NCBI GenBank assembly: GCA_964561825.1
Contig: CAZLSB010000003.1
Coordinates: 1 to 51,779 of the forward strand
Reading direction: 5' to 3'
Length of the DNA: 51,779 nt
DNA from: an uncultured Xanthomonas sp.
Lineage (GTDB): Bacteria; Pseudomonadota; Gammaproteobacteria; Xanthomonadales; SZUA-5
Shown here: positions 16,310 to 51,779 of the stretch, in pieces
Position numbering within the stretch: the first letter of the stretch is position 1
How the letters are laid out: every line of letters begins with the position of its first letter
The notes under the pieces: generated by a model
The model's input: only the letters and a program-made list of their open reading frames with translations
Databases searched by the model: none
What the model was told of the DNA's origin: nothing
Position numbers and translations under genes: made by a program

Positions 16310-16360
16310 ATGTCCATTGCTTGGCGATACTCTGCGTCCGACAATTTGATGTTGCCTGCC

Positions 16361-17362: not shown

Positions 17363-17389
17363 CTGCTCGGTGACCGCTTTTTGAGGCCT

Positions 17390-19384: not shown

Positions 19385-21198
19385 GGCGGGCCTTGCGCTG
19401 ACTTATTTTTGGCGTCCGCGGCTTCACCGGCGGCGCCATAGGCACGCACGCCGGGTGGTGAATGGGTGATTTTGACCGCTGCGTAGCTGATCACCGGTGG
19501 CGCATCGCCCGCGAAAGTGGCCAGTGAGTGTTGCAGGTAGTTGGCGTCGTCGCGCTTTTGATAAGCATCCAGACGCTGGTGCGCACCGCGTGATTCCTTG
19601 CGATGCAGCGCCGACACGGCCATCGCCTGCGCCACCTGCAACTGATAGCCAAGTTCAATGGCCAACAGCCATTCGGTATTGAACACGCTGGAGCCGTCAT
19701 CCACGCGCACCCGTTGGTAACGCTCGCGCAAACGGGCAAGTTCATCGCAGGTGGCCTGCATTTCATCGCCCGTGCGATAAATGCCCACTCCGCGTTCCAT
19801 GGTCTGCGCCATTTCGCGGCGCAAGACGGAAATACGCTCAGTGCCACGATTGTCACCCACCAAACTGAGCGCGCGCGTTTGCGCGGCCTGTGCTTGTTGC
19901 ATTAAGCGCGTGCCATTGCCGGGAGCGAGCTTGCGCGCGTACGCAGCGGCGTGATCGCCCGCGACTTTGCCAAACACGCAGATTTCCGACAGCGAGTTTG
20001 ATCCCAATCGATTTGCGCCATGAATGCCGACACTGGAGCACTCGCCGGCAGCATACAAACCCGGCATCGGGCTTGCGCATTGTCCATCGACCAAGATGCC
20101 GCCCATCGTGTAGTGCGCCGCCGGACGCACCGGGATTGGCGTGAGCGCAGGATCGATGCCCATGAATTGCTTCGCCAACTCGCAGATTTGCGGCAGGCGT
20201 TCGCGCAATTTCTGGGCGCCAAGATGCCGCAGATCCAGATGCACCGCCGAACCCTGCGGTCCTTCAATCGTGCGGCCTTTTTGCTGCTCGTACCAGAAAG
20301 CCTGACTGAGCCGATCCCGCGGGCCCAGTTCCATCGCTTTATTGCGCGGCGTGGGTTCGGCCGGCCCCAAACCGTAGTCCTGCAGATAACGATAGCCATC
20401 CTTGTTGACCAAAAAGCCGCCCTCACCACGACAAGCCTCGGTAAACAACAAACCGGTCCCCGGCATGCAGGTCGGGTGATATTGCACAAACTCCATATCG
20501 CGCAGCGGCACGCCATGTCGGTACGCCAGCGCCATGCCATCGCCGGTGACGATGCCGCCATTGGTGTTTTCGCGAAAAACACGACCGGCGCCACCCGTAG
20601 CGATGATCACCGACCTGGCCTCAATCATGACGAATTCGCCAGACGCAATGTGGATAGCCACAGCGCCCTTAGCGCAGCCCTCTTCCACTAATAGATCGAC
20701 GCAAAAGTACTCGTCGAAGCGTTTGATGGACGGAAACTGCAACGAGGTCTGAAACAGCGTGTGCAGCATATGAAAGCCGGATCTATCGGCGGCAAACCAC
20801 GTGCGTTCGATCTTCATGCCACCAAAGGCGCGCACATTGATATGTCCGTCCGGCTTGCGGCTCCAGGGACAACCCCAATGTTCCAACTGCACCATTTCTT
20901 CGGTGCAATGGGCGACAAAATAGTCAACGACATCTTGCTCGCACAGCCAATCGCCGCCCGCCACGGTGTCATGAAAGTGATGTTGCAAACTGTCGTGCGC
21001 CTGCACCACGCCCGCAGCGCCGCCCTCAGCGGCCACCGTGTGGCTGCGCATCGGGTAGACCTTGGAGATCAGCGCGACGGTCAGTGAGGGATCTTGTTGC
21101 GCAATGGCAATAGCCGCGCGTAGCCCAGCGCCCCCCGCTCCAATGATCGCCACATCCGCCCGGAACGCTTGCACAATCGCCTCAATGGAACGCCGCAA
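19381..21198 (-). CDS. frdA: Fumarate reductase flavoprotein subunit
   Basis: There is near-colinear similarity by eye to E. coli FrdA (ADVAIIGAGGAGLRAAIA, SKVYPMRSHTVAAEGG, HFHDTVAGGDWLCEQDVVDYF, RPAAHYTMGGI). The true start could be a few codons inside the ORF. Confidence 0.92.
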   Translation of the reverse strand: MRRSIEAIVQAFRADVAIIGAGGAGLRAAIAIAQQDPSLTVALISKVYPMRSHTVAAEGGAAGVVQAHDSLQHHFHDTVAGGDWLCEQDVVDYFVAHCTEEMVQLEHWGCPWSRKPDGHINVRAFGGMKIERTWFAADRSGFHMLHTLFQTSLQFPSIKRFDEYFCVDLLVEEGCAKGAVAIHIASGEFVMIEARSVIIATGGAGRVFRENTNGGIVTGDGMALAYRHGVPLRDMEFVQYHPTCMPGTGLLFTEACRGEGGFLVNKDGYRYLQDYGLGPAEPTPRNKAMELGPRDRLSQAFWYEQQKGRTIEGPQGSAVHLDLRHLGAQKLRERLPQICELAKQFMGIDPALTPIPVRPAAHYTMGGILVDGQCASPMPGLYAAGECSSVGIHGANRLGSNSLSEICVFGKVAGDHAAAYARKLAPGNGTRLMQQAQAAQTRALSLVGDNRGTERISVLRREMAQTMERGVGIYRTGDEMQATCDELARLRERYQRVRVDDGSSVFNTEWLLAIELGYQLQVAQAMAVSALHRKESRGAHQRLDAYQKRDDANYLQHSLATFAGDAPPVISYAAVKITHSPPGVRAYGAAGEAADAKNKSAQGPP

Positions 21199-21257
21199 AC
21201 TGAAGCAAACAGTAAGCGACTCAAACCAAAGGCGTGTTGAGTCAAATCAAGGGCGAA

Positions 21258-22160
21258 CTATTCGGTGGGCGCGTTCAAATCAGCTTCGCTGAAATCAACG
21301 TCTTCGACTTCCAGCAAGGTGGTTTGGCCGCGTTCGCGCCGTCGCCGCGGGTGCAGGCGTAGCTGACGTTTAGACAACCAATCCAGCGATGTGCGTAACC
21401 ACCACCAGCGATGGATGCGGTACGCCAATCGGGCGCAACAGACCAACACCACAATGACCAATGCTGCCACTTGGCCAAATAACAAAAAGAGCCATGACAG
21501 CGCCAGCACGCCGGCGATCACATCAATCGAATCGTCTGATTCCAGGAAGACGTCACGGGTTCCGACGGTGCCCGTTTTTGCGGTTGTAACCCACAGCAGT
21601 GCACGCAAACTGCGCGTCACAAACACGCCAATCATCAACACTGGCAGGAACAAATTGGACAATACGGCCTTCCATTCCAACACGCCCAACTTGGTCATCG
21701 AAATCGCAACGATGGGCAAAACCAGCAAGGCCAAAATGCCAGATAGCACTAAAGTGGGTTGCAACTTCGGCTTCAGGCGCCCCGCCAGACGTACCGTTTC
21801 ACCCCTTTCAACGGTCCGACAAATAGCCAGAACTTCCTCAACGCGGTGCTCGCGTGCATGACTGTAATGCACCCAGCGCGACGCCAATCCGTAACGCATG
21901 CCATCAATGAGCACCGACAAAACCGCATTAAAGAGCAAAAACAGCAAAATCCCGGCCGGCGTCCAACCTAGCCAAAGGCCTAAGCCAAGAACCAAGAACG
22001 AGCGCGCGACCACCCAAATTTGCGCGCGCGCGTGCTGCATGCCACGCGACAACACGTGATTGCGGGCGCGCGCCAGTTCTTTCCCCAGCACCGCCAGTTC
22101 ACCATTGCGGATGGGGACGCGCTTACGCCGAATCAACAATGACAGAGCACCCAACATCAT
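21258..22160 (-). CDS. Hypothetical polytopic inner-membrane protein
   Basis: The start is taken at MMLGALSLL (22160). The track extension to 22325 is Arg/Cys-rich. There are at least six hydrophobic helices. I recognise no family. Confidence 0.55.
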   Translation of the reverse strand: MMLGALSLLIRRKRVPIRNGELAVLGKELARARNHVLSRGMQHARAQIWVVARSFLVLGLGLWLGWTPAGILLFLLFNAVLSVLIDGMRYGLASRWVHYSHAREHRVEEVLAICRTVERGETVRLAGRLKPKLQPTLVLSGILALLVLPIVAISMTKLGVLEWKAVLSNLFLPVLMIGVFVTRSLRALLWVTTAKTGTVGTRDVFLESDDSIDVIAGVLALSWLFLLFGQVAALVIVVLVCCARLAYRIHRWWWLRTSLDWLSKRQLRLHPRRRRERGQTTLLEVEDVDFSEADLNAPTE

Positions 22161-22494
22161 TTCGATAACCTCAGGTGATCTAGAACGATTGCACTTGGCG
22201 CATGGGAGGCGTCGCCCTGCCGCGCAGTGTCGAAGCCTTCGGGCTGCAAAGCTTGCCCGGCCAGCGGCTAGCTCACGGCCGTTAAGACTAACAGCCTGTC
22301 GTACTTGTGAGAAATCGGCTGTCAATTAGCGCAATTCAACTAGTGGACCGACCTGTTTGTCATCAATTCGCAACAACGCCGGCGCTTTCATTGTTTCGTC
22401 TACCACACGGAACGAAGCTTATTCGGGCGGATTGGCAATACTGTTTGCCTGGGTTTGATGCGATGCGCAGCACCTATTTGACAGGAGTATTTCA

Positions 22495-22983
22495 ATGAAC
22501 AGCCCTAAACGCCATACCGGTCGACGACTCGTTGCCCTTTCGTTGGCGCTCAGTCCGGTTATTGCGCAGGCCGACTATGTCCCTACGGCAATCAATCGCG
22601 CGTTCATTGACCCCGCCAGCTTGCCGGTGGTTGTCGACGGCTACCAAGGCGGCGACGAAGTATCATTTATCTTTGAAACCACGCCCGAAATTACCGGCGG
22701 CGCCACCTCGGGGGTGGGCGCGTGGTCGACGGTGTACTTGCCACGCGGTGCACGCGTCTTTGCCGCGGAACGGCTGGTGGATTCAGGTGGCGTCTACGTA
22801 ACCATCCCCGCACGTGACCTTGCCACCATGTCCAGTGCTGAGCCAGGTGGCGCCGGTGGCGATTCGGCGCTGCGCTCATTCTTTTTGATCACAGAAGACG
22901 TTTGCGGCGGCCCCGGCCTGCAAGATGTGCTTGCAGGCCGGGTCGCTGGCGTAGCTATCCATTTTTGGATGCGGAAAAGCTAG
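22495..22983 (+). CDS. Hypothetical small exported protein, possibly a truncated remnant
   Basis: 162 aa with an AGGAG 7 nt upstream of the ATG and the signal peptide LVALSLALSPVIAQA. I recognise no family. The C-terminus ends abruptly (AIHFWMRKS). Confidence 0.45.
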   Translation: MNSPKRHTGRRLVALSLALSPVIAQADYVPTAINRAFIDPASLPVVVDGYQGGDEVSFIFETTPEITGGATSGVGAWSTVYLPRGARVFAAERLVDSGGVYVTIPARDLATMSSAEPGGAGGDSALRSFFLITEDVCGGPGLQDVLAGRVAGVAIHFWMRKS

Positions 22984-23040
22984 ATGGAATGTCCTTGGGA
23001 TGGAGTTGAGTCCGACTGCTGGAATGCTTTCAGCGGGGAT

Positions 23041-23682
23041 CTACTTACCAGCAACATTGCCCCACAGCAGCTTGTGCAACTGCAACTGAAAGCGCACCGG
23101 CAATCGATCGGTCAGTATCCAGTCCACTAAGTCGGTGGGCGCCAAACGGTCGGCTACCGGCGAAAACAACACCTGACAGATGCTTTGCAGTTGGCGAGTA
23201 CGACATTGTTCGCTTGCCCAGTCGTAATCGGCGCGATCGGCAATGACAAACTTGATCTGATCCAAGCGGGTCAGCAGTTCAAGATTCTCGTAACGATTGC
23301 GCGCCACTTCGCCGGAGCCCGGGCATTTCAGGTCAAGCACCTTGCGCACCCGCGGGTCGACTAGTGAAACGTCCATCGCGCCTGAGGTTTCCAGGGATAC
23401 CTCATGGCCGGCGTCACACAAGGCCGTCAATAATGGCAAACAGGCGCGCTGCGCCAGCGGTTCACCGCCCGTGACACAGACGTGTCGGGTAGCGTAACTG
23501 GCAACCGTGGCCAACACCTCGTCTAGACTGCGCTTGTCACCACCTTGGAAGGAATAGGTGGTGTCGCACCAGACGCAGCGCAAGGGACAGCCGGTAAGAC
23601 GTACAAACACCGTCGGCCAGCCGACCGCGTCTGCTTCACCCTGAATCGAGTGAAAAATTTCGGTGATCCGCAAGCTACTCAT
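23041..23682 (-). CDS. queE: 7-carboxy-7-deazaguanine synthase (radical SAM)
   Basis: The start is at MSSLRITEIFHSIQGE (23682). The radical-SAM cluster is CPLRCVWCDT. The track extension to 23889 overlaps cpoB and is not protein-like. Confidence 0.88.
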   Translation of the reverse strand: MSSLRITEIFHSIQGEADAVGWPTVFVRLTGCPLRCVWCDTTYSFQGGDKRSLDEVLATVASYATRHVCVTGGEPLAQRACLPLLTALCDAGHEVSLETSGAMDVSLVDPRVRKVLDLKCPGSGEVARNRYENLELLTRLDQIKFVIADRADYDWASEQCRTRQLQSICQVLFSPVADRLAPTDLVDWILTDRLPVRFQLQLHKLLWGNVAGK

Positions 23683-39630: not shown

Positions 39631-41333
39631 CGGCGCTTGCGTGACCACACTTTGCGACCATCGAGCCAAGTCGAGTTGACCTCGATGGTTAATAAGCCGC
39701 GGCCACGCAAGCGCTGCGGGTCGATCGACAATTCCACAAAATCGGCGCGTTTGCCCACTTCCAGGGTGCCGATGGTGCCTTCCGCAAAGCCGGCGTAAGC
39801 GGCGCCTCGGGTAAAACCGTCCAGCGTTTCATTCAAGGTGAGTCGCTGATCGGGCAACCAACCCCCTTTCGGCGCGCCTTTGGCGTCTTGTCGAGTCACT
39901 GCGGCATAAATGCCCAAAACCGGCTGCACGCGTTCCACTGGAAAATCCGAGCCCAGCGCAATGCGTACGCCCTGGTCCATAAAACGGCGCCACGCATACG
40001 CGCCACGCAGGCGCTGCGCGCCAATACGCGCCTGCGCCCACGGCATATCGCTGGTCGCGTGAGTCGGTTGCATCGATGCGATGACACCGAGTTGGGCAAA
40101 ACGGGCGATGTCTGCGGGCGCGACCACCTGCGCATGTTCGATACGTGGCCGCAGGCGCGCGCGCTGCTCGGCGCTCAGCGCGGCAAAGGCATCCAGCACG
40201 GCGCGATTGGCACGATCGCCAATCGCATGCACCGCTGGCTGTATGCCGCAAGCCGCAGCGCGGGCGATGATTTTATTCAGTTGCGCCGGCGTTTGGATCA
40301 ACAATCCGCGATTGCCCGCGTCATCGTCGTAGTCGGCCAAGAGCGCCGCGCCGCGACTGCCGAGGGCCCCGTCGGCATACAGTTTGACCGCGCGCACGCT
40401 CAAACGACCACCCGGATGTTGGTACGGGCCGTCGCGGCAGAGCTGCGCCAGCGCCGCCGCATCGCCATCGGCCATTGCGTAAATGCGCAGCGGCAAGGCG
40501 TCGTCATCGGCCAAATCGCGATACAGCGCTAGATTTTCGCTCGACACGCCGGCATCGTGCACGCCCGTCAAGCCCGCGGCGACCGCGCTATCCAGCGCCA
40601 GCCGTAGCGCGCGGCGACGCACGGCGCGGTCCGCCTTAGGAACGCGCGTTTCTACCAAACCCATCGCTGCGTCGATCAGCACACCGCTGGGTTTGCCATC
40701 GGCGCCGCGCAAAATTCGACCGCCCTCAGGGTCTTTGCTGTGCTCATCGATTCCGGCCGCGCGCAGCGCCGCTGAATTGGCCCAGCCGGCGTGACCATCG
40801 ATGCGCTCCAGCCACACCGGGCGATCGGCAATCACCCGATCCAAATCCGCGGCGGTCGGAAACGCCTGCTCTGGCCAGTCGTTCTGATCCCAGCCACGAC
40901 CGAGCAGCCAATCGCCGGGTGCCAGATCTTTGGCTTTGGTCAACAAACGCTCGTAGATCTGCGCACGATCACGGGTGTCGACCAAATCAGCCTGCAACAG
41001 GGAAAACCCTAAACCCAGCAGATGTCCGTGCGCATCAATCAATCCGGGGATGACCGTGCCGGCCAGCACGATCTCCTGCACGCCGCGCTTGCGACTCTCC
41101 AGCAGCTTGCGTAAATCGGCACTTCTACCCTGCGCGAGCACCCGGCCTTCGGCGTCAAAAGCGAGTGCACTCACCGGCTCAGCACTCAACGCGGTGGGAT
41201 AAATACGCCCAATCAGCAGCGTATCCGGCTTGGCTTGTGCAAATGACAGTGTGCTGACCAACAAGCTGGCGCAAAGCAAGCCGCGCACCAAGTGCATGAA
41301 CATCTGACCAGCCGTTAGCGATCGCATGAGCAT
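39627..41333 (-). CDS. Secreted metal-dependent amidohydrolase (Amidohydro_3-like)
   Basis: It has a signal-like N-terminus (LLCASLLVSTLSFAQA), the metal-binding motif GLIDAHGHL, and the downstream motifs HAIGDRA and GSDFPVE. The start is ambiguous, with Met codons at 41333, 41327, 41303 and 41297. The ORF limit is 41426. Confidence 0.8.
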   Translation of the reverse strand: MLMRSLTAGQMFMHLVRGLLCASLLVSTLSFAQAKPDTLLIGRIYPTALSAEPVSALAFDAEGRVLAQGRSADLRKLLESRKRGVQEIVLAGTVIPGLIDAHGHLLGLGFSLLQADLVDTRDRAQIYERLLTKAKDLAPGDWLLGRGWDQNDWPEQAFPTAADLDRVIADRPVWLERIDGHAGWANSAALRAAGIDEHSKDPEGGRILRGADGKPSGVLIDAAMGLVETRVPKADRAVRRRALRLALDSAVAAGLTGVHDAGVSSENLALYRDLADDDALPLRIYAMADGDAAALAQLCRDGPYQHPGGRLSVRAVKLYADGALGSRGAALLADYDDDAGNRGLLIQTPAQLNKIIARAAACGIQPAVHAIGDRANRAVLDAFAALSAEQRARLRPRIEHAQVVAPADIARFAQLGVIASMQPTHATSDMPWAQARIGAQRLRGAYAWRRFMDQGVRIALGSDFPVERVQPVLGIYAAVTRQDAKGAPKGGWLPDQRLTLNETLDGFTRGAAYAGFAEGTIGTLEVGKRADFVELSIDPQRLRGRGLLTIEVNSTWLDGRKVWSRKRR

Positions 41334-41517
41334 GAGAAACCCTGACCCGTGTTCAGCCTGCGCAAGGTTATACAGCGCGGGTGGCCCGAAGACTTCCCAA
41401 CCTTCAAGGTTTCGTATTGAGTTCAACTCCGGCGGAACGATTCACTCGCTGGACACCTCTGCAGTCAGTCCAGGCCCACCCATTTTCCGACCTGAATCAG
41501 TGACCCAAGTCCTAGGC

Positions 41518-41549
41518 AGCCACGCCTCTCGCCTCGTGGCTTATTTTTG
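41518..41549 (+). terminator. Terminator-like hairpin with no upstream plus-strand gene
   Basis: The 7-bp stem is AGCCACG (41518-41524) / CGTGGCT (41535-41541) with a 10-nt loop, followed by TATTTTTGG. A second hairpin, CTGGAC/GTCCAG, lies at 41449-41473. No plus-strand ORF lies upstream. Confidence 0.3.
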
Positions 41550-42346
41550 GTCGATTGTTCGCCTCGCAGGTGTTGTGATCCGATCTCGTAGGCGTCTACT
41601 TGGTGGTCTTGTTGTGTTCTCCGGGGAAGTGCGCAAGTTTTTGGTTAAGAAATGTTTGGTGACCACGCTGATTGTGCCACCGTCCACGCCGCGGCGGCGG
41701 GGCTGAGCGGCCCGCGCAGAGCTTGGGCGTGCCCTTGCTTCAAAGTCTCATTGAACAGCGGACCGGGTGAAGGCCGCAAAGCCCTCCCCCATTTCAGAAG
41801 TCCCAATATCTGGCTCTCGTGTGGTCCGGATCTCGAGTCGTTCAACCTCGTCGATTCCCTGATCTCGCACGCAAACCTCCGACGGGGGACAAGCGCGTTC
41901 AGCCTCCGCTTCGGCATGGGTTGTTGGGGGTTGATGACGGGCGCCCTTCGAGCTTCATGAGAGCTTTAGCCTGCTCTTGACGCGCCGCCGCAGCGCGGAC
42001 AACATACAATCACTCGCCGATACGAAGGGTTCGGCACACGCGGTTGGTTGTTCCGTGTAAGGCGACACCGCCTGCGTGCCAGCCTTCAGAGCAACCTGTT
42101 GCCGATGCTTCTGCAAGGAGCTTCCCCATATTGCTCGGCCTGATAGTGATTCCCGATAGGCCGCTGATGATCGTACAGCGGGTAAGGGTGACCGCCCAAG
42201 TGCGGACGCGAGCGAGCGCCGGCATGCTGCGGGTGTGCTCGGACCTGAGCCGAGGAATCCACGTGCGGAAAGGGATGGGTGACGTGGAGATCGAACTCTC
42301 TCGGTGCACTGCGCCGACGCGAGAACCGTCCTGGCTTTCAGCGTGC

Positions 42347-44434
42347 ATGTTGCATGTCTTAGCCATCTTGGCGACCTTGGTGCTTGCTTTGTCGCAACCC
42401 GCTCAGGCTCGAGCGCCGGAAGGCAAGGCCGTCGCTGTGGTGTACGACGACTCGGGAAGCATGAACAGCCCTAGTAGGCGCTGGGTAATGGCGAACTATG
42501 CCCTGCAAGCGCTGGTGTCAACGCTCGGCGAGAGCGACACGCTGATCATCGTTTGGATGAACGTTGAAAGCCCCTCCGTTTATAAGGGGGCTTCCGAATT
42601 CGATAACGCGATCAAGGATCTGTCGCGACAGCCGGCACCTAGAAATGGCGGCACCCCATTCTCCTCAGTGCTGAGGGCCATTCAGCAGCTCGAAATCCAT
42701 GGCGCTCCAGAGAAATGGCTGTTGATCGTCACTGATGGTGAGTTTACCGAATCAGGCCAGGGCGACTTCGATCAACGCGCCCTGGAACGTGCTGTCGCCG
42801 CCGAAGTGCGCACGGGCTTCGTGCTGTTGGAGCTCGAAACCAACGACATTGCGACAAAGTGGCAGAACGCGGTCGGGGCGGAGATATTTGTCGCAAGCAA
42901 CCCTGAATCCGTGATCAGTGCGGTCGGCCGAGCTGCCGCTTGGCTGAACAACATTCCGGTGAGTGGCACCGGACTCGACGTGGAGTCCCAAGGCAACATC
43001 GTCCACGTTCGCTCGCAGTTTCCTATGTATCGTGTCCTTGCGCTTCGCCAGGACGCGGCTTCTGTCGAGCTTCGTCGCATCCAGACCGCCTCCACCCGCG
43101 TCGACAAGCTCCGCGAGCATCGATTTACCCCGCGCGAGCGACTTCGCGGCTTACCGGAACGGGGTAGCGTCCTCCACATCGCCAACCCGGATTTTTCGCC
43201 ACTTCTGCCGGATGCTGCCCGACAGGTTGCTGAGCTTGAGTTCGCCGCACCGCTTAACATTCGCAAGACGTCGTTCTTGCCAGTGGTTGCGGCTTCGCTC
43301 TCCCTAGAAGTCTTGGACTTGAGCGGCCAACCGCTTGAGGTCGAGCAAGGAAACCGAGTGAGTTGCGATGACAAGGTGCAAGTCGTGGCCAAGATCGTAG
43401 ACCACCTCGGGCAATCGCTTACGGCGCTGCGTTCTGACATCGCATCCTTTCGGGTGCGATTGCGGACAGGAAAGGGCGAGCCGCTCGACTACTCCGAACC
43501 TGTAGATGCCTTTTCGCGCATAGTGAAGCTCGGCACTCTTGGAGGCGAGACCATTCTCACGGCAACGGCGGAGTACCCAGGGTACTTCCACTTTACCAGC
43601 GCACCCTTACGTATCCGGCAGCAGGAGTGCCAGCGATCGATCACGCTTGAGGTGACCGCCGGCCTGAACTCAAGCGGCAGGTGGCAGCATCCAGTTGACT
43701 CGCTCTCAGAAGCGCGGTTTGTCCAATTGGCAGTCAAAGTGGACGGTCAGCCCGCCAGTCTCACAGAGCTTGAGCGCTGGAAAGTCGAGCTGGGTGAGCA
43801 CGAAAGCGCCATGGAAACTCGGATCGAGCATGGTCAAGTCCTGATTCGCCCGAAGCCCTGCAACTGCCTGTTCTGGTGGCTCCAACCAGAGGCTGGTACA
43901 TACGACATCCCATTCACCTTGCGAACCGGCCGGGCGCGAGACGAAATCGAGACGCGGGTGCTGAGCATGGAACTTCAACCTCTGGAGGGTTGGGGCCGCC
44001 GCCTGCGCTGGTATGGATGCCCATTTGCAGCGTTGGCTGGGCTCGCATTGCTGCTCTGGTATCTGCATCGACTTGCCACAAAGCACCGCTTTGGGCCCGG
44101 CTCCCGGTTCCTCTGCGAGGAGACTCCCAAGGGCGGCGGAACCATTCAACCGCAGACCATAATTCTGAGGGACCAGGGCAGACTCTTTTGGCGTTGGCTT
44201 TGGCCTAGCAAGGCGGAGCGAATGGTCGCATTTGGCATTCTGTTTCGCGCCTCTGCGGGCGGGGAGCTAGTGGCGGACGGCCGCACCTTGGGCAAGCAAC
44301 ACCGCATTCCCGGCTGGCGTTTTGACCCACAGCGTCGAAACGATCAGGTCCAGGACGACGCAACGGTCGGCGACCGAACAAGAGTGACCATTGACCGACC
44401 CGCCACTGACTTCAAAGCGACCTATCGCAACTAG
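42347..44434 (+). CDS. Membrane-anchored von Willebrand factor A (vWA/MIDAS) domain protein, first gene of the cassette
   Basis: The signal-like N-terminus is MLHVLAILATLVLALSQPAQA. An alternative start at 42275 is possible, and the ORF limit is 42044. The MIDAS motif DDSGS lies at 42446-42460, with GGTP and VTDGEF downstream. About 330 aa of unassigned sequence follow, then a TM helix (FAALAGLALLLWYL, about 44010-44060) and a C-terminal tail of about 130 aa. Confidence 0.8.
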   Translation: MLHVLAILATLVLALSQPAQARAPEGKAVAVVYDDSGSMNSPSRRWVMANYALQALVSTLGESDTLIIVWMNVESPSVYKGASEFDNAIKDLSRQPAPRNGGTPFSSVLRAIQQLEIHGAPEKWLLIVTDGEFTESGQGDFDQRALERAVAAEVRTGFVLLELETNDIATKWQNAVGAEIFVASNPESVISAVGRAAAWLNNIPVSGTGLDVESQGNIVHVRSQFPMYRVLALRQDAASVELRRIQTASTRVDKLREHRFTPRERLRGLPERGSVLHIANPDFSPLLPDAARQVAELEFAAPLNIRKTSFLPVVAASLSLEVLDLSGQPLEVEQGNRVSCDDKVQVVAKIVDHLGQSLTALRSDIASFRVRLRTGKGEPLDYSEPVDAFSRIVKLGTLGGETILTATAEYPGYFHFTSAPLRIRQQECQRSITLEVTAGLNSSGRWQHPVDSLSEARFVQLAVKVDGQPASLTELERWKVELGEHESAMETRIEHGQVLIRPKPCNCLFWWLQPEAGTYDIPFTLRTGRARDEIETRVLSMELQPLEGWGRRLRWYGCPFAALAGLALLLWYLHRLATKHRFGPGSRFLCEETPKGGGTIQPQTIILRDQGRLFWRWLWPSKAERMVAFGILFRASAGGELVADGRTLGKQHRIPGWRFDPQRRNDQVQDDATVGDRTRVTIDRPATDFKATYRN

Positions 44435-44470
44435 CTTTTCCGATCAACTTTCGCTCCTCGGAGATTTGAC

Positions 44471-47400
44471 ATGCTCGACAGTCCAACCCTTCTCATTGGC
44501 CTAGGCGGTATCGGCGGCCAGATCGCTTACCGCGTTTGGCAGCGCGTTCCCGAGTCGGCAAGAAAGATCGTTGGACTACATATATTCGACACCGACCGCA
44601 ACCCGGATTCTGGCCTCGGAAGGCCTGAGTACGCTCCGCTGTGGGACAGTGGCGCCATTACCCAGACCTCTCCCGACAAGTCTGTCCAAGAGTGCGTCGA
44701 CGGCTTGAAAGGCAAGTCCGAAGTTCAGCGTTGGTTTCCACTCAGCGACACCATCGGCCAGCTTTCGATGACGGATGGTGCCATGCAGGTCCGTGTTGTC
44801 TCCCGTCTGGCGTGGCTCGACACGTTGGCGCGAGGCGACCTCAGGAACCTGGATGCTGCCATTGAAAAGCTGCATGTCGTTCGCCCACAGCGAGGAAAGT
44901 CCGCGTTCCGTGTCCTGTTGATCAACACGCTTGCCGGCGGCACCGGGTCCGGATTGTTCCTTCAAGTCGCACTTTATATTCGCAACTATCTGGAGGCGAA
45001 GCGCGGGCGCAGCGACGTCACCATTCGAAATCTGAGCCTGCTTCCGGGAATTTTTCTCGGCACCGGAGGATTTTCCGGAAGACCAAAGCAGATCCAAAGC
45101 GTTCAAGCCAACGCCTATGCATCGGTTAAGGAGTTGGAGGCTGTGATGGTGGCCAGGCACAGCACAATGACCCCGGAAGACAAACGCTTCCTTTTTCCGT
45201 TGGAACTCGAGTATGTGCCCTCCCGATCTGAGACTTCCGTGATTGACATCGGCGCTGCGCCTTTCGAGACGATCTTTCTGCTGGACCGAATCAACGCCGC
45301 TGGACAGTCGATGACCGCGGCATCCTCTTACATCGAGCAAGCGATCGATACGATCTACCTGCAGCTCATTTCCCCTCTGGAAGGCCGCATTGCGGGACAA
45401 ACCAACAACCTGGTTCGCGCCATCGATGCATCCGGCGGACGCGGCCGTTACGCCAGTATGGGTGTGGGCACACTGCGTTTTCCTTATGAAGATATCGTCC
45501 GATACTTGGCGCTTCGCTGGGCCGCCCATGGCCTGGACGACCAGTGGCTGTCGATCGACCGGCAGTGGCGGCGCGAAGTAGAGGAAGCTAAGCGCCGACA
45601 GGCCAGCAATCCGTCGGTAGAGATCCCCACCCGCCGCCAGCGGTTCGTCGAGGTGCTCGAACATCGGGCCAAAGCCGATCCGCCTCATCGCTTCTTTTTA
45701 TCCATGCTGCGTTCGACCCAAAAAATCGGTCGCGACGCCTACGATCAGGAAGTTTGCACCGATACCGTCAGCCTTTGGACCTCAGCGGTGCGACTTAGGA
45801 TCGCAACAGCGCTCGACAAGGCGGGAGGGCTGCAACTTACCCGCGCGCTCGATTCGACGGCGCTCAAGAACCCTGAGCTGTTTGTCGGCGAAGTCGCGCA
45901 GAATCACGCCCAGATTCTCCGCCTGCACGCACAAGCCGAGGAGCGTGTCATGCGAAGCGCGCAGCTGATCGCAAACGACATTCTCTGGGAAGACGCTAAC
46001 CAAGAGCCGTTCGTGGTCATGGATACCAAGGGACGCGAACTGGCGGTTTACCGTCTAAACACATGGTTGCTTCACCCCGGGACGGACGGCCATGCGGTTC
46101 ATGGCTTGCATCCGGTCGCCGTTCGCTACTTTCTCTATCGAGCGTATTTTGCCGTCGATGACGCACTATCGAAGACGCAGAGCGATACCGAACAACTGGT
46201 CGAGAATCTTGAAGCCATGCGCAGCAAGTACGACAACCCGAAGACACCGGTTGTCGAGTCCGTTGTGAACCGTGCCGAGGAAGTCAAGTTGAAGCACAGG
46301 TTCTGGAAGCCAGGTGAGCTGAAAGCATTCGCCGAGCAGTATGAAAAAGAGTCGCGTGCGCACATCGCATTGATTCAGTCGTGGGCATTGACGTCGATCG
46401 AGTTCGAAACGCTAAAGCGAGTCCGAAGCGTACTTGAGTCGATGGTTGCCGATTGGGAACGCTTCTTCGATGCCTTGGATGGCCATCTTGCGCAGCGCTT
46501 TCGAAGCGAAATCGAGATCGAGTCGCGAAAGAACGAGTCGGCGAACTCGATGGAGCTGCCGGTGCTGGGAAGGGCCCAGGACAAGGAGCGTTTCTGGTCA
46601 GACGTCAATCGTGGTTTTTCCGATGATGCGGTGAGTCCCGAAATATGCGCTCGACTCTACATTGCACATTTCCTGGACGCCCATGAGCGCCACATCGATC
46701 TGGACAAATACCAGCGACAGCGCCACGGGAAGGCCAACGCCGAAGAACGTCTTTTCAAGGAGCATGTCGTTGCCTGGTGCGAAGAACAATTGCGTCAACG
46801 CTCCGACTTGAGGTTGGACATCATCAGCGCCTTGCAAAAGGAATGGCAGTTGTCCGGCACCGGCGACTGCTCCGAAGACTGGATCCTAGCGCGCATAGCG
46901 GGACTGCGTTCCATGGTCGCCCCGTGGCTTCCAGATGTTGGCGAAGGCCGCTTCGAGCAAATGGAGTTCTGGGGCTTGCCGTCGGTCGTTAAGAGCAATC
47001 TCCCACCCGCGGATTTCGCCTCGCTCTTCGAGGGGGGCGGCGGCAATCCAGTTGTGTCCGAGGAATTCTCTCCGTTCGAGATCAAACGGTTCGTTGCGCG
47101 CTTCGCAATGAGCGTCTCCGACATTCCCGACTTCAAGCTCGATAGCGGCAGCTACGCGCGCGAGTATCGGCAGATGCGAGACCAGACGCTCGCTGACCCC
47201 AGCCGGGGAATTCCGGTACACATCGACAAACGCTGGGATTCACCCGCGTTTTTGCGCGAGATCGACGATGCCGAGCAGGACATCGCGGCCGATCGACTGC
47301 GACGCGCTGTTCTGTACGGCATCCTCCACGACGAGTTCGTGCTTCGAGAACACGACAGCCAAGGATACTGGGCGTTCATGGAGAACCAGCAGTCCCTGCC

Positions 47401-47899
47401 TTTGACGCTGTCTAGCGGTAAACGAGCTCCACCAACGCTGCTGGGGTTGTTCGATGGCCTCGCCATGCATTTCCGATGCGTCGACAATGCTCTGCGCATC
47501 GCATTCGATCGAGAGGATCGGGCGCGCTCGACTGACGACTCAACGTTCTCGAGCTTGCCGCTGCCCAACGCTGGGTTGAAGATGCTGCGCAGGCTAGTGA
47601 AGTTTGGCGACTCGAATCAGGACACACGAAGCCGGCAGCTTTTCGCAGCACTGCTCGACGCGTTCTGCGACGAGATCGCCTGTTGCGCGCTGCGCCAAAC
47701 AGGGCTTGATCATCCGATAACCGCAGTCAACTTGGCGGAGAAAGCAATGAAATCGCTTCGAGAGCGCGCCGCGCGCGCCGTGCCCGCTAAAGAGCGGACC
47801 AAGAGCCTGACTGCGGCCTTGGCGGCGCTCGAGCATCGGCCGAAGCTCTGGCGCAAGCGCGTCGATAACGACCTGCTTCCGGCGCCCAAGTACTGGTAG
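44471..47899 (+). CDS. Giant tubulin/FtsZ-superfamily-like GTPase (Tubulin_2-like N-domain plus a helical extension of about 850 aa)
   Basis: 1142 aa. The glycine-rich T1-like loop is LLIGLGGIGGQ (G10-G16, 44498-44518). AGGTGSG at residues 155-161 (44933-44953) exactly fits the tubulin signature [SAG]-G-G-T-G-[SA]-G. The T1-T4 spacing is like that of tubulin. GGAG lies upstream of the ATG. Confidence 0.8.
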   Translation: MLDSPTLLIGLGGIGGQIAYRVWQRVPESARKIVGLHIFDTDRNPDSGLGRPEYAPLWDSGAITQTSPDKSVQECVDGLKGKSEVQRWFPLSDTIGQLSMTDGAMQVRVVSRLAWLDTLARGDLRNLDAAIEKLHVVRPQRGKSAFRVLLINTLAGGTGSGLFLQVALYIRNYLEAKRGRSDVTIRNLSLLPGIFLGTGGFSGRPKQIQSVQANAYASVKELEAVMVARHSTMTPEDKRFLFPLELEYVPSRSETSVIDIGAAPFETIFLLDRINAAGQSMTAASSYIEQAIDTIYLQLISPLEGRIAGQTNNLVRAIDASGGRGRYASMGVGTLRFPYEDIVRYLALRWAAHGLDDQWLSIDRQWRREVEEAKRRQASNPSVEIPTRRQRFVEVLEHRAKADPPHRFFLSMLRSTQKIGRDAYDQEVCTDTVSLWTSAVRLRIATALDKAGGLQLTRALDSTALKNPELFVGEVAQNHAQILRLHAQAEERVMRSAQLIANDILWEDANQEPFVVMDTKGRELAVYRLNTWLLHPGTDGHAVHGLHPVAVRYFLYRAYFAVDDALSKTQSDTEQLVENLEAMRSKYDNPKTPVVESVVNRAEEVKLKHRFWKPGELKAFAEQYEKESRAHIALIQSWALTSIEFETLKRVRSVLESMVADWERFFDALDGHLAQRFRSEIEIESRKNESANSMELPVLGRAQDKERFWSDVNRGFSDDAVSPEICARLYIAHFLDAHERHIDLDKYQRQRHGKANAEERLFKEHVVAWCEEQLRQRSDLRLDIISALQKEWQLSGTGDCSEDWILARIAGLRSMVAPWLPDVGEGRFEQMEFWGLPSVVKSNLPPADFASLFEGGGGNPVVSEEFSPFEIKRFVARFAMSVSDIPDFKLDSGSYAREYRQMRDQTLADPSRGIPVHIDKRWDSPAFLREIDDAEQDIAADRLRRAVLYGILHDEFVLREHDSQGYWAFMENQQSLPLTLSSGKRAPPTLLGLFDGLAMHFRCVDNALRIAFDREDRARSTDDSTFSSLPLPNAGLKMLRRLVKFGDSNQDTRSRQLFAALLDAFCDEIACCALRQTGLDHPITAVNLAEKAMKSLRERAARAVPAKERTKSLTAALAALEHRPKLWRKRVDNDLLPAPKYW

Positions 47900-47926
47900 G
47901 TCTCAGGTACTCAGGACAGCCCGGCC

Positions 47927-49657
47927 ATGCATGTACTTTGTTTCGATCATCGCGGCCTGATCGGCAACTTGCTGCCCTCCGCCTTGTTGCCGGAGGCTGG
48001 AGGCGAGCTGCTGATCGTGCCGGGTCTCGAGGGCGCGCATGGCGATGCGGTGGTTGATTTCGTGCATGCCCAAAGGCAGCACGGTGCCCCTTGGGAAATA
48101 TGGCACCTATGGGATACGTCGAGCACTAGGACCCATGTCGAGTCCTTGGCCAACCAGTTGGAGTCCCTCATTCGGGACAATGCGGAGTGTGCGCTGCATT
48201 GCCTTTGCGTCGTGCCCCTTTCGGCAGGTTCTGTGACGTTCAGCTTCCTTGGTCGCACGAGTCCAGCCAGCGAACGCGCATGGCTGCCCACCCCGCAACG
48301 CTGGACTTGGGTCGAACTCGGACTGCAGCGCGACCAAGGCCAAGACCTCCACGCGCTCCTCCCACTGGTGCTGCGGTTTTGGCTTTCCCGAGCGGATCTT
48401 GGTATCGCCGAGCTTACGACCTGGAACAAGCATGGCTGCTATCGCCTTCTGTTCAAGCACTCTGCTGAGGCACTCGGCGATACTCGGCGCCTGCTGGCGC
48501 AACGCTGGCGCGCGGCGAACCAACAGCTATTGAAGGATGTTGAGGCGCTTCGAGGCGCACCGTGCGAAGGCACGAATTTCCTCAAGCTGCCGGAACATTT
48601 TGTTGCCGAGCTTCGGCTGCCGTACGACGGCAGTGGCCGTGCTGTTGGTCGATCCGCAGGATCGACGGCCGGGGAACTGGGATGGTTTTTCTCACCCGAG
48701 GACTTTGCTCGCATCAGGGCTTGGACCGGCGGTCAACTCGCGACGTTCGGCATCGAGCTTAGACGCGCTCGCGACGCTGCCGATGCAGCTTACCGAGCGC
48801 AGTTGAACGCGTTCTATCGCGGGGATACTGGCTCTGAATCCACCGCCGAGACTCCTCAGGCCGCCGTGACCAGACTGCGGGGAGAATGCGAGCGCTTGCG
48901 TAGCGACACCCCTTCGGAGCAGGACCTCTTAGAGGACCACGAGGGCCTCTTGGTGGAACTGCGGCGCAGGGAAAGTTTTTGGCTGGCAGATCTGTTCGTC
49001 GCATTGCGTCATCGACCGAGTCGGCGGATGACCCGGTGGATTGTCGCCACCGCTGCCATCGTTCTTGGCGTCGTCGTCGCGTACCTCGCGCAGGTAGGGT
49101 CCGCCACGCCGCCTGCCGACGAGACACGATGGTGGTGGGCATTGAGCGGCGGCATCGTTCTTCTGTCCGCATTCTTGTTCGGTTTGACCCGGGCTCGACG
49201 CGTCTTCCGCGCTCGCCTGCAAACCGTTGTGTCCGAGATTGCTGCGTACTGGAACCGCGCAAGGCAAATTCATGCGGACCACACCGATATGCTTAATCGG
49301 CAACTGCGCCTGATTGCACTGCAGCACAACCTCGTTATCGCTGAAGCGGCGCAGAAAAAGCGTGAGCGCGCCGTCGCACAGAGTCTCTACCACGTGAATC
49401 GTCTCGACGAATATATCCGGCAGAACGCGGCTTCCATGCCCGACTCGCCGTCCACGAACGCTGTGCTCCCGCCTCCCATTATCCGCATCGATCAATCTGA
49501 ACGCCTGAACCCCGCGTATCGTTGGATCGGAGATCCTGCGCCCATTGAGCTGGCAGTCCCCGGGAGCGTATTCCAAGCCGCCCCCAGCAAGTTCAATCAC
49601 GACGGCCGTCTGTCGGGAATCAAGCGCATCGACATACAGGTCTTGTCGTCGCCATGA
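47927..49657 (+). CDS. Hypothetical bitopic/hairpin membrane protein with coiled-coil regions, third gene of the cassette
   Basis: 576 aa. A soluble N-terminal region of about 360 aa is followed by two adjacent TM helices (WIVATAAIVLGVVVAYLAQV and WWWALSGGIVLLSAFLFGLT, about 49030-49190) and a helical C-terminal region. I recognise no family. Confidence 0.7.
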   Translation: MHVLCFDHRGLIGNLLPSALLPEAGGELLIVPGLEGAHGDAVVDFVHAQRQHGAPWEIWHLWDTSSTRTHVESLANQLESLIRDNAECALHCLCVVPLSAGSVTFSFLGRTSPASERAWLPTPQRWTWVELGLQRDQGQDLHALLPLVLRFWLSRADLGIAELTTWNKHGCYRLLFKHSAEALGDTRRLLAQRWRAANQQLLKDVEALRGAPCEGTNFLKLPEHFVAELRLPYDGSGRAVGRSAGSTAGELGWFFSPEDFARIRAWTGGQLATFGIELRRARDAADAAYRAQLNAFYRGDTGSESTAETPQAAVTRLRGECERLRSDTPSEQDLLEDHEGLLVELRRRESFWLADLFVALRHRPSRRMTRWIVATAAIVLGVVVAYLAQVGSATPPADETRWWWALSGGIVLLSAFLFGLTRARRVFRARLQTVVSEIAAYWNRARQIHADHTDMLNRQLRLIALQHNLVIAEAAQKKRERAVAQSLYHVNRLDEYIRQNAASMPDSPSTNAVLPPPIIRIDQSERLNPAYRWIGDPAPIELAVPGSVFQAAPSKFNHDGRLSGIKRIDIQVLSSP

Positions 49658-50406
49658 TGATGGCGCTCCTTCCGTATGCCCTTCTCGTTGGCGTCCTGCT
49701 GATCTTGTGGCTGACGAACTTCCGGCGCAGGCGGCGCAACGAGCAGTGGCTGTTTCCTGTTGCCGCGCTCGTGTTTTCGGTCGCCGCGCTGGCGGCGGTC
49801 TACTGGCTTCGCGAGGAGTACTTGTCGCTGCTGGCGCGCTACGACCTCTGGGTGCAGTGGACTGAAGCAATCGTTCCCATCGTCGTCCCTAAGGACGTCT
49901 TCGGACTGCTTCCTTGGCTGAACGGAGTGTTCCTGCTTCTGTTTTCGCTGATCAAATTGTTGCTCAGGGGTTCGCTGGCGCTCGTTGCTCGACTGCGCAA
50001 GACGACACCTCGGGGCGACAGCGCCTGGGGCGCCTATGCGCATGTCAAGGACCAGGGCTGGCAACGGCAGCCAGAGTGGTACTTTGCCTTGCAAGCATGC
50101 CGTGCGCTGACGGTGCTGGCCTTCTTCCTGCTGCTTGTTTGCTGGCAGGTCTACGAGGGGCGCTGGTCGCCACCGCTGACGCCGATCCTCCCGGCCATGG
50201 CGTTGGTGATCTTCGCAGAGTGTGCCGCCTACCTTGGTGGACAGTCCCCGGGGTGTGGGGCTGTGGAACTCCATGGTGATGACGTTTCAGTTTCGGCATT
50301 CGGCAACTACTCAAAGGTCTGGAAGGAGATGCTTGCGATCTGGCCGAAGCACTGGCTGGCGACAGGCTCGGCGCGAATCTGGAGGCGACCCCATGGGCCC
50401 CGATAG
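49654..50406 (+). CDS. Hypothetical polytopic membrane protein, fourth gene of the cassette
   Basis: 250 aa with about five hydrophobic helices (for example ALLPYALLVGVLLILWL, FPVAALVFSVAALAAVYWL, ALTVLAFFLLLVCW). It has an ATGA start/stop overlap with the preceding gene. Confidence 0.7.
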   Translation: MMMALLPYALLVGVLLILWLTNFRRRRRNEQWLFPVAALVFSVAALAAVYWLREEYLSLLARYDLWVQWTEAIVPIVVPKDVFGLLPWLNGVFLLLFSLIKLLLRGSLALVARLRKTTPRGDSAWGAYAHVKDQGWQRQPEWYFALQACRALTVLAFFLLLVCWQVYEGRWSPPLTPILPAMALVIFAECAAYLGGQSPGCGAVELHGDDVSVSAFGNYSKVWKEMLAIWPKHWLATGSARIWRRPHGPR

Positions 50407-51779
50407 CCATCGGGCTCGCGCCTCTGAATCAGTCGGCGATGAGGAACTTGCCGCCGTATCCAATTGGATCGAGCAACGTCACAACGTGCTGCTGCTGAGT
50501 TGGCCCAACCCGCGTTTGGCGCGGTTGTTGCGCGCTGCCATCGAACGGCGAATCGGTCGCGGCAACAACGCGGTGCTGCTGGTAGAGAACGATGTGCAAC
50601 TCGCCGCTTCGAAAGTCTTGGCGCCGCCCGATCTGCAGGTCGCCGGGTCATTCACTTGCAGGGGCTACACCCGGCGAAGGTTCCTGGACGAAGTCGACGC
50701 CGCCAGCGCCGATGTCTGGTTCAAGCACCTCGACCTAATCGTCATTCCGTTTGCCGACGATACGTTTCACGCGCCCTTCGAATGGGAGCATGTCTGCTTC
50801 CGGATCATTGATCGCTACCGGCGAGCAGAGCTTCCGCTTCCGCAGTTTGTCCTGGTCTGTTCGCCGCGCAACCATGCCGAGGCTGCACTACGGCGCAACT
50901 TACCCATCTTCGATACGAGTGCGCGCCCGTACGCGACCGGCCAACATCGGCCGCATGAACAGGCATTGTCCGGTGTCGACACCAAGCACATCTGGTGGAC
51001 GCTCTGGGCGGCGGAACAGCGCTACGTAGGCGCCATTCTTCAAGCGCGACCGGACGTGGATTACGGCGTCGCTCCCGTCCTCGCCTACTTCGCGGGCCTG
51101 CGTCGAGTCGCGCCAAGCCGATACGCCAACCATCCAGGCGTGCACATGGACGACCAAGCCGAAGCTCTGCAGATCCAGATCGCTTCCCTTGGCGCTCGTC
51201 CTCCAAACGATGTTGTAACAGCTCAATCGAACACCCAGTTCTCCCGGTCCGAGCCCTGTAGCGGAGAAGTGATTCACGACGCCACAGGAAACGCCTGGCG
51301 TGCTCTTCGGGCATTCACCGAGCGCGGGGGAGAGGCGGTATTGCTGGGAATCGCCTGTGCGCCGACGCTGCTCAGGGGGTACCTGATCGACAACGCCGCC
51401 TATTACGCGAGCAGTGTTCTGGAGCCGCTCACACCCAGCATGGTCAACAGCGAGTCAGTTGTCGCCACCCAGATCTACCTGCGTCTGACGCCTGCCGGGA
51501 CTCGGCTCCCCATGGTGGAAGTCCGTAACGCCTTGGAGGGCATTCCGGTTGCGGACCGCAGCGTGCACACCTTCGCGCGGCTGCGTGCGGCATTTGAATC
51601 CGTATTCGGAAATGCCGTGGCCAGCGCGCTGGCACTCGAAGTAGGCGAGCGCTGGGGTGACGCCGAACAACGGTTTATTCGCGAAACGTCAGTGTTCCTC
51701 GGCACGGTACCGATAGCCGATGACGCCGACTGGCTCAAAGGATGCCGCGTCGTCGACGAAGACGGCAACGATCTTGATC
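50393..51779 (+). CDS. Hypothetical protein, fifth gene of the cassette (5' part only; runs off the window end)
   Basis: It is not in the supplied track because it has no in-window stop. The ATG at 50393 lies 8 nt after GGAGG (50381-50385) and overlaps the gene 4 stop by 14 nt. I read 462 sense codons to 51779 with no stop (MGPDSHRARASESVGDEELAAVSNWIEQRHNVLLLSWPNPRLARLL...). All other frames here hold only short ORFs. Confidence 0.75.
   Translation, partial: MGPDSHRARASESVGDEELAAVSNWIEQRHNVLLLSWPNPRLARLLRAAIERRIGRGNNAVLLVENDVQLAASKVLAPPDLQVAGSFTCRGYTRRRFLDEVDAASADVWFKHLDLIVIPFADDTFHAPFEWEHVCFRIIDRYRRAELPLPQFVLVCSPRNHAEAALRRNLPIFDTSARPYATGQHRPHEQALSGVDTKHIWWTLWAAEQRYVGAILQARPDVDYGVAPVLAYFAGLRRVAPSRYANHPGVHMDDQAEALQIQIASLGARPPNDVVTAQSNTQFSRSEPCSGEVIHDATGNAWRALRAFTERGGEAVLLGIACAPTLLRGYLIDNAAYYASSVLEPLTPSMVNSESVVATQIYLRLTPAGTRLPMVEVRNALEGIPVADRSVHTFARLRAAFESVFGNAVASALALEVGERWGDAEQRFIRETSVFLGTVPIADDADWLKGCRVVDEDGNDLD

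Follow-up and report, generated by a model that had tools for sequence, protein, structure and literature searches.

The stretch of DNA analyzed here, referred to as the window, comprises the first 51,779 nucleotides of contig CAZLSB010000003.1 from an uncultured Xanthomonas sp. Its + strand carries five co-directional open reading frames (ORFs), designated g1 to g5, across positions 42347–51779. The g1 gene (42347–44434) encodes a 695-aa predicted type-I membrane protein with a von Willebrand factor A (vWA) domain and its metal ion-dependent adhesion site (MIDAS). It is followed by g2 (44471–47899), which encodes a predicted cytoplasmic FtsZl1/Tubulin_2 protein of 1142 aa, and by g3 (47927–49657), which encodes a 576-aa membrane protein with a transmembrane hairpin and no known family. 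The 250-aa product of g4 (49654–50406) has five hydrophobic segments and is the predicted membrane anchor of g5 (50393 to beyond 51779), a predicted cytoplasmic protein with the first 462 of its 996 aa in the window. Spacers of 36 nt and 27 nt separate the first three genes, and the last two junctions are overlaps of 4 nt and 14 nt. An initial annotation, made from the window alone, had reported these five frames and this spacing, and both were confirmed on the window sequence. It had also treated g4 and g5 as separate genes, but they are a single protein in most genomes, so the five genes represent four functional units. The locus is an operon of the FtsZl1 (Tubulin_2)–vWA type, extended here to four units.

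The amino terminal part of g2 (aa 7–354, 44489–45532) is a tubulin-like GTPase domain. It aligns with positions 1–354 of the 356-position Tubulin_2 profile PF13809 at an E value of 8.8e-45 and 153.9 bits (cut-off 27), and the same profile is present in 74 of 74 g2 homologues. A T1-like loop, GLGGIGG, lies at aa 10–16 (44498–44518) and the T4 signature AGGTGSG at aa 155–161 (44933–44953). The tubulin/FtsZ motifs, the G156–G161 element, and the PF13809 match put forward in the initial annotation are all borne out by these results. Residues G10, G12, G13, G15, G156, G157, T158, G161, N214, and N313 are invariant in an alignment of 39 sequences (A1). N313 is preceded by ED in most sequences and by QT in the window, and no T7 loop could be assigned. 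The AlphaFold2 (AF2) model of g2 from the 39-sequence alignment is confident, with a predicted local distance difference test (pLDDT) value of 87.8 and a predicted template modeling (TM) score of 0.75. The top 50 matches of this model in a Foldseek search of the PDB are all tubulin, gamma-tubulin, TubZ, or BtubAB at a probability of 1.00, with E values of 5e-4 to 3e-3 over 357–411 aligned columns and modest TM-scores of 0.31–0.42. A search of the viral models in BFVD placed phage tubulins on top and also recovered FtsZ. Past approximately residue 360, the model consists of long helices and small alpha/beta domains for about 780 aa. The long helices span aa 468–505, 548–584, and 615–685, the last being a 70-residue helix, and the carboxy terminus is helical from 990 to 1132. 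The FtsZl1 architecture of an FtsZ-like amino terminus, a coiled-coil, and a helical carboxy terminus is therefore found in g2. The likeness to canonical tubulins (FtsZ, TubZ/PhuZ, and BtubAB) extends to the fold of the amino terminal 360–400 residues, the Gly-rich T1 loop, and the GGTGSG T4 loop. Unlike them, g2 matches the canonical Tubulin profile PF00091 at an E value of only 0.11, gave no match in a PDB sequence search with its profile, aligns at the modest TM-scores given above, has the additional 780-aa carboxy terminal part, and has genes for membrane proteins as its operon partners in place of division or partition genes. The modeled structure indicates that g2 is a large protein with a tubulin/FtsZ GTPase fold at its amino terminus and a long helical carboxy terminus.

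The g1 protein begins with a signal-like segment detected by hydropathy (aa 1–23, 42347–42415). The MIDAS elements follow as DxSxS at 42446–42460, the Thr element at 42647–42661, and TDG at 42728–42742, and residues D34, S36, S38, T103, and D130 are invariant in an alignment of 12 orthologues from several phyla (A6). The window protein matched VWA_2 (PF13519) at an E value of 1.5e-4 and 22.8 bits, which is under the cut-off of 27. Among the orthologues, VWA_2 was matched by 5 of the 12 (best 8.4e-9) and VWA by 3 of the 12 (best 4.9e-6). The vWA profile match expected from the initial annotation is thus weak for the window protein itself and firm among the orthologues, in which the MIDAS is invariant. 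A PDB profile search with g1 returned nothing useful, the CobT vWA domain at an E value of 0.78 being the only match. A beta-rich region of about 355 aa without an assigned domain separates the vWA domain from the transmembrane helix at aa 558–576 (44018–44074). This helix was read from the sequence and from alignment with the transmembrane segments of the orthologues, and it falls below the threshold of 1.6 used in the hydropathy scan for such segments. The predicted cytoplasmic tail of 119 aa (aa 577–695) contains the conserved motif RWLWPSKAE (44192–44218), in which P620 and E624 are invariant in A6 (RWLWPSxAE). The predicted topology of g1 is a signal peptide, a periplasmic vWA domain, the beta-rich region, a transmembrane helix, and a cytoplasmic tail. 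The g1 frame opens at 42044, and a start at that position was rejected because the orthologues all begin at the signal peptide; the gene call at L001, the locus with the most similar cassette, agrees.

The predicted parts of g3 are a cytoplasmic amino terminal domain of about 365 aa, a transmembrane hairpin, and a helical carboxy terminal part of about 150 aa. Hydropathy puts the two arms of the hairpin at aa 372–390 and 403–421 (49040–49096 and 49133–49189), and a conserved YH motif lies at 49385–49405. A Pfam search with g3 and g4 found no family. A hidden Markov model (HMM) of the g3 orthologues from Firmicutes, Desulfobacterota, and Rhodothermia matches the window protein at an E value of 8.7e-12, and hhalign gives a probability of 97.1% over 267 columns. 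Because the nonproteobacterial HMM and hhalign both recover the window protein, g3 represents a true orthologous family across phyla.

The charge bias of the loops between the five hydrophobic segments of g4 points to an amino terminus outside and a carboxy terminus inside. Searches with phmmer using either g4 or g5 matched the same ORF of 1195–1460 aa in the genomes where the two are fused. These features predict that g4 is the membrane anchor of g5 and holds it on the cytoplasmic side. Hydropathy detected no transmembrane segments in g2 or g5. Hydropathy and the orthologue alignments agree with the features first assigned from the window, which were a signal sequence and late transmembrane helix in g1, a hairpin in g3, about five transmembrane helices in g4, and soluble g2 and g5 proteins.

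The full-length sequence of g5 was obtained from P0076, a 996-aa protein from another metagenome that is identical to the window fragment at 461 of 462 residues. The part of g5 within the window consists of a putative helicase superfamily 2 (SF2)-like amino terminal domain that lacks motifs and the start of a conserved central domain. A Cys4 zinc ribbon (C775, C778, C797, and C800 in P0076 numbering) and an HExxH…E zincin signature (H897, E898, H901, and E923) lie past the window end. The initial annotation had recognized no motif in g5 and no enzyme of known metabolism in the cassette; the full-length protein contradicts both statements, having the Cys4 ribbon and HExxH and ending in a zincin metallopeptidase signature. 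The four Cys residues and E898 are invariant in 33 diverse members of the family, and H897, H901, and E923 are at least 90% conserved. The zincin Glu is 22 residues after the second His in P0076 and 18 residues after it in the fused orthologue at L002. Weak Pfam matches recur in the family, to the putative metallopeptidase DUF6782 in 11 of 15 members (best 3.4e-5) and to BSP in 8 of 15 (best 8e-4). Four proteins score 15.2–17.3 bits, which is under the cut-offs of 27 and 23.8. None of the scanned members of the g5 family passes a Pfam cut-off, and a PDB sequence search with the g4/5 profile gave nothing useful. The placement of a Cys4 ribbon immediately before HExxH…E is shared with DA1-like LIM-peptidases, SprT/Wss1, DUF6782, and BSP, and one member of the g5 family matches DA1-like. 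Unlike these zinc finger-plus-zincin peptidases, g5 has only matches under the curated cut-offs, and its peptidase-like domain ends a membrane-tethered protein of 1000–1460 aa. The carboxy terminal signature predicts that g5 is a putative membrane-tethered zinc protease. The g5 family comprises 942 clusters at 50% identity (E ≤ 1e-3), mostly of 1200–1500 aa. A few members among P0088–P0214 have extra domains, which are a transglutaminase-like core in two and a subtilase S8 and a Cu_amine_oxidN1 domain in one each.

The AF2 model of g5 has a pLDDT of 53.9, with block means mostly of 62–86 over aa 21–160, and its poor quality is attributed to a shallow alignment of six sequences. The best Foldseek match of this low-confidence model is the MrfA DUF1998 helicase (6znp) at an E value of 1.7e-4 and a root mean square deviation of about 29 Å, and its amino terminal part aligns with domain 1 of the SF2 helicases Mtr4, eIF4A, MDA5, and RIG-I over about 180 columns at a deviation of about 5 Å. 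The shared features with MrfA/DUF1998 helicases, as far as the model can be trusted, are a RecA-like first domain and a four-Cys zinc site downstream. The differences are that g5 is membrane-anchored and ends in a zincin and that neither Walker A (GxGK[ST]) nor DExH/D is conserved in the g5 alignment, where there is no conserved Lys and no acidic pair. The motif I positions read SWPNPRLA, DPVYGEIRP, and AGMYDEISP, and the motif II positions read PFADD, PEAER, NIDES, and NASAT. No Pfam helicase or DUF1998 match was found in the two sets of 15 and 33 g5-family members. The amino terminal domain of g5 is tentatively a helicase-like scaffold that is probably NTPase-dead. DrmA/DrmB-type defense helicases belong with MrfA in this comparison.

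A gene of the FtsK/SpoIIIE family (about 1170 aa) lies directly after g4/5 at L006 (19824–23327), at L007, and at seven metagenome loci (L106, L107, L111, L115, L123, L129, and L135), and within this subclade it could form a sixth component. This gene, the helicase matches of g5, the Cys4 ribbon beside the zincin, and the presence of TubZ among the structural matches of g2 are the evidence for a membrane system directed at DNA. DNA or DNA–protein complexes at the membrane would then be acted on by the helicase-like domain, the zinc ribbon, and the SprT/Wss1-like zincin, together with FtsK/SpoIIIE in the subclade, and g2 would be a TubZ-like filament that moves DNA. Such a system could exclude, take up, or segregate DNA, whether foreign or the cell's own. 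We consider it improbable. The structural argument depends on a poor model of g5, the nucleotide-binding motifs and helicase family matches are missing from the family as described above, and no DNA-binding domain was found in g1–g3. The FtsK gene occurs in a minority of loci only, and FtsK-family ATPases move proteins too.

The linkage of the genes was determined from both ends of the cassette. The genome scan for g2 homologues used a 15-sequence alignment. A g1 homologue is immediately upstream of g2 in 76 of the 80 loci with enough upstream DNA. Among the 71 loci with enough downstream DNA, g3 and g4/5 are both present in 24, and none has only one of them. The reciprocal test used 51 metagenome loci located via the HExxHxWQ motif of g5. 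Starting from g5, both g3 and g2 were found in all 21 loci having at least 2.8 kb upstream, and g1 was also found in all 16 loci having at least 7.3 kb. The 4-nt overlap of g3 and g4 is kept in most loci. The same five genes occur in close relatives of the window cassette (88% and 46–52% identity), and distant relatives with the order g1-g2-g3-(g4g5) were found in Alteribacter, Desulfovibrio, Sutcliffiella, Evansella, Neobacillus, Paenibacillus, Syntrophomonas, Desulfobacca, Rhodothermia, and Panacagrimonas. About 40 species of the Bacillus cereus group and Ectobacillus have the g1-g2 pair only. The five-gene set proposed in the initial annotation does co-occur in other genomes, but g1 and g2 are its only universal members, and this pair is all that the B. 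cereus group carries. These data show that the linkage is conserved far beyond chance, that g1 and g2 are the universal core, and that g3–g5 are an obligately linked add-on.

The linkage bears directly on the idea that the five ORFs do not form a functional unit, or that some of them are not real genes, and lie together by accident. A generic sigma-70 promoter scan found no site in 41300–44600, and g3 and g4 belong to no family, which would fit such an accident. Order, strand, and the tight or overlapping spacing are nevertheless kept across Pseudomonadota, Bacillota, Desulfobacterota, Rhodothermia, and gut metagenomes, and g4 and g5 are fused elsewhere. The strict co-occurrence in both directions already contradicts a fortuitous arrangement, which we regard as hardly credible.

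The combination of a vWA protein, a tubulin-like GTPase, and membrane partners was presented in the initial annotation as an uncharacterized candidate, but it had already been predicted. Makarova and Koonin defined FtsZl1 in 2010 with a vWA partner that has an intact MIDAS and with lineage-specific membrane proteins, and they predicted a membrane-remodeling machine (PMC2875224). Their tabulation includes BA_3638 (vWA, 730 aa) and BA_3637 (FtsZl1, 1156 aa) of Bacillus anthracis, a pair of the same subfamily as g1 and g2, and other pairs from the B. cereus group (PMC2875224). The window cassette resembles these operons in the Tubulin_2 family, the architecture of g2, the vWA membrane protein with an intact MIDAS immediately upstream, and the accessory membrane proteins, and the B. 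cereus-group loci are direct homologues with 28–29% identity over about 950 residues. Unlike the published operons, it has no GTPase, kinase, or OmpA partner, and g3 and g4-g5 fall outside the accessory families A1–A2, B1–B9, GTPase, and OmpA; neither these nor the accessory kinases include a Zn-ribbon or zincin protein (PMC2875224). Among the operons retrieved from Additional file 5, none has two proteins of about 720 aa and then about 1280 aa downstream of FtsZl1 (PMC2875224). A later phylogenetic study used the Tubulin_2 proteins merely as an outgroup, and searches of the searchable literature found no functional or experimental study of FtsZl1/Tubulin_2 and no defense-island paper on it. 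The g1-g2 pair has therefore been described before, and the g3–g5 module and its strict linkage are new. As the initial annotation had supposed, no characterized system was matched in searches of PADLOC, NCBIfam, and PDB sequences; the NCBIfam search gave no matches for any of the cassette proteins.

The surroundings of individual relatives were read gene by gene. The L001 cassette is 88% identical to that of the window, and the similarity of the two sequences extends only from approximately 41960/42093 to 51779 in the window, with different flanks. A block with the form TTGACG-17 nt-CAACAT (41977–42005, + strand), about 340 nt upstream of g1, marks roughly where this similarity begins. Pairwise alignment of the window with L001 shows the block conserved in both; it is present as a single copy in the window and is a putative promoter judged by its sequence. 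A terminator/promoter scan of 41300–44600 returned one terminator-like site, on the opposite strand. On the − strand of L001 at 19384–23414, convergent with the cassette, lie genes for a vWA protein and a PP2C_2 phosphatase, followed by an unannotated gene of 985 aa. This layout resembles TerY-type vWA-phosphatase-kinase triads.

Genes of types associated with defense or mobility adjoin several more distant five-gene relatives. RAMP genes, an integrase, and DDE/Tn3 transposases surround cassettes of 50–52% identity at L089 (1–3391 and 20413–21546) and L090, and a different cluster with RAMP and CorA-like genes adjoins a cassette of 50–52% identity at L093 (1–6079). The RAMP clusters of L089/L090 and L093 are not detectably homologous, and no repeat arrays were found within these RAMP-flanked loci. 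At L090 (7078–9254), three ORFs of 310, 318, and 94 aa stand where an intact g1 would have one of 724 aa, which suggests decay of the vWA gene. Two giant STAND-type proteins are encoded directly upstream of a 49%-identical cassette at L094 (1–7671); one has NPHP3_N/NACHT with WD40 (1678 aa) and the other NPHP3_N with TPR (1489 aa). Prophage-type genes adjoin another five-gene relative. A Csm6-like gene lies directly after the cassette at L002 (19458–20954, Alteribacter), L009 (19506–20963, Sutcliffiella), and L010 (12121–13599, Evansella), and the L002 gene matches the Pfam families Csm6_6H and Cas_Cas02710.

The RAMP genes beside cassettes at two sets of loci with mutually nonhomologous clusters, and the Csm6-like gene in three genera, raise the idea that the cassette is an ancillary effector of type III CRISPR-Cas or cyclic-oligonucleotide signaling, which neighboring RAMP/Cas10-type loci would have recruited in the manner of other ancillary effectors that are membrane proteins or proteases. 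The five proteins contain no detected CARF, SAVED, or other sensor domain. The RAMP-flanked loci lack repeat arrays, and no cas neighbor was found at the window, at L001, or at 21 genome loci besides the three Bacillaceae. The same adjacency would arise in a defense island, and a CRISPR-ancillary role is very improbable.

The reading that we put first, tentatively and at somewhat less than even odds, is that the cassette is a transmembrane sensor-effector machine with outside-in signaling. The periplasmic vWA/MIDAS domain of g1 would engage a ligand or an envelope perturbation, and the g1 tails would be changed or clustered as a result. On the inner side of the membrane, these tails would nucleate the GTP-dependent assembly of g2 or its switching. 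The g2 scaffold, with g3, would then recruit or activate the membrane-tethered zincin, which would cleave a target. The g1 and g2 proteins would form the minimal machine and g3–g5 an add-on output module. By analogy, its logic would resemble that of Zorya, in which a membrane/periplasmic sensor is joined via a long cytoplasmic helical element to effectors that include a helicase-like protein, and that of the integrin-cytoskeleton connection, in which an extracellular vWA/I-domain receptor is tied to a cytoplasmic filament-forming protein. The cassette has no sequence or domain homology to ZorABCD or integrins.

Several observations weigh against the sensor-effector proposal. GTP binding, polymerization, contact between the g1 tail and g2, and proteolysis are all inferred, the g5 model is of low confidence, and the L077 orthologue has lost HExxH. 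PADLOC-DB v2, which includes Zorya models, gave no match at E values up to 1 with the five window proteins or with seven orthologues that cover g5 or g4-5 in full length. The plasmid, phage, and viral-contig collections almost completely lack the cassette, which indicates that it is not typical cargo of mobile elements. The defense-type neighbors rest on loci read individually. Housekeeping genes (TolQ, RuvB, PriA, and an amidohydrolase) are upstream of the window cassette. The g1-g2 pair of the B. cereus group and Ectobacillus has a recurring neighborhood in the 11 loci read gene by gene; Pfam identified housekeeping genes at two of these loci, namely a GerA operon, formate dehydrogenase, EamA, and squalene-hopene cyclase, with DUF212 also nearby in the B. 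cereus group, a setting atypical for a defense system.

These same contexts favor the proposal of Makarova and Koonin, a constitutive membrane-remodeling or cytoskeletal machine. GTP-dependent g2 filaments lying under the membrane and anchored to it by g1, g3, and g4 would shape, bud, or sever membrane or organize the envelope, and the zincin would process or recycle components. The published operon prediction (PMC2875224), the tubulin fold and long coiled-coil of g2, the three membrane proteins in the operon, the housekeeping genes upstream in the window, and the lack of a defense HMM match are all consistent with remodeling, and the g1-g2 pair looks vertically inherited in the B. cereus group and Ectobacillus, where it keeps a syntenic position amid housekeeping genes. 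The distribution over phyla is patchy, however, and the 88%-identical relative has different flanks. RAMP, integrase, transposase, STAND NTPase, and Csm6-like neighbors accompany several five-gene relatives, one of which has a broken g1. The T6-H7 elements of FtsZl1, which are needed for FtsZ-type filaments, could not be aligned by Makarova and Koonin (PMC2875224), and remodeling offers no role for the helicase-like domain or the Cys4-zincin. We judge constitutive remodeling to be possible and rather unlikely. The genomic context is mixed and contains evidence both for remodeling and for a role in conflict, the two functions that the initial annotation had suggested, with defense- or mobile-type neighbors at L089/L090, L093, L094, L001, and L002/L009/L010 and housekeeping neighbors in the window and the B. 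cereus group. For the five-gene form, the different flanks of L001, the RAMP, integrase, transposase, STAND, prophage-type, and Csm6-like neighbors, and the broken g1 are signs of accessory, mobile behavior, and an accessory, horizontally mobile role in conflict or envelope stress is in our view more likely. In a more far-reaching version of the sensor-effector proposal, the tubulin-fold GTPase would be the polymer that transduces the signal in an immune or stress system sensing the envelope. The extracytoplasmic vWA receptor would trigger its assembly at the membrane, and assembly would switch on a membrane-tethered zincin with a dead-helicase scaffold, which would carry out the response. This version is rather unlikely.

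Other features of these loci were recorded. The DNA right after g1-g2 is variable in the B. cereus group (L013, 13621–20675, compared to L016, 12078–15510). Some species have a GerA-type operon and a formate dehydrogenase-like gene inserted before the EamA/DUF212/squalene-hopene-cyclase block; others are without them or have an ORF of about 460 aa. A g2 homologue with 24% identity over 83% of the query is present at 6988–9744 of MT836542.1, a 9.8-kb unannotated 'Bacteriophage sp.' contig from human feces; the contig could be a piece of bacterial DNA that was misclassified. The window itself is part of a Gram-negative chromosome and carries Tol-Pal genes, RuvB, PriA, SdhA, MacB/HlyD, and an S46 peptidase. 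An Rfam search of the window gave no matches, and a tRNA scan of it found no genes and hence no tRNA attachment site. A co-directional run of ORFs at 12346–17875 (+ strand) encodes products of 345, 951, 350, and 164 aa; at an E value of 1e-5, Pfam matched neither the 345-aa nor the 951-aa product. An 862-aa Ser/Thr protein kinase fused to TPR repeats is encoded at 8691–11279 (− strand), adjoining the S46 peptidase gene (6443–8656).

Within the tubulin superfamily, the most divergent branch is FtsZl1/Tubulin_2, which has had only a computational prediction of membrane remodeling since 2010. The present analysis adds one subfamily with a two-gene core, a vWA receptor and a tubulin-like protein, and a strictly linked module that ends in a putative metalloprotease. 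The core pair is found across the B. cereus-group species of the genome collection, and those organisms are genetically tractable. Tractable hosts and mutable residues in the T4 loop, the MIDAS, HExxH, and the Cys4 ribbon provide a way to ask what a nondivision bacterial tubulin does. If the more far-reaching version of the sensor-effector proposal is true, no earlier sensor-effector or immune machine of bacteria would have been based on a tubulin, and a family with more than 900 unannotated clusters of proteins would gain a function.

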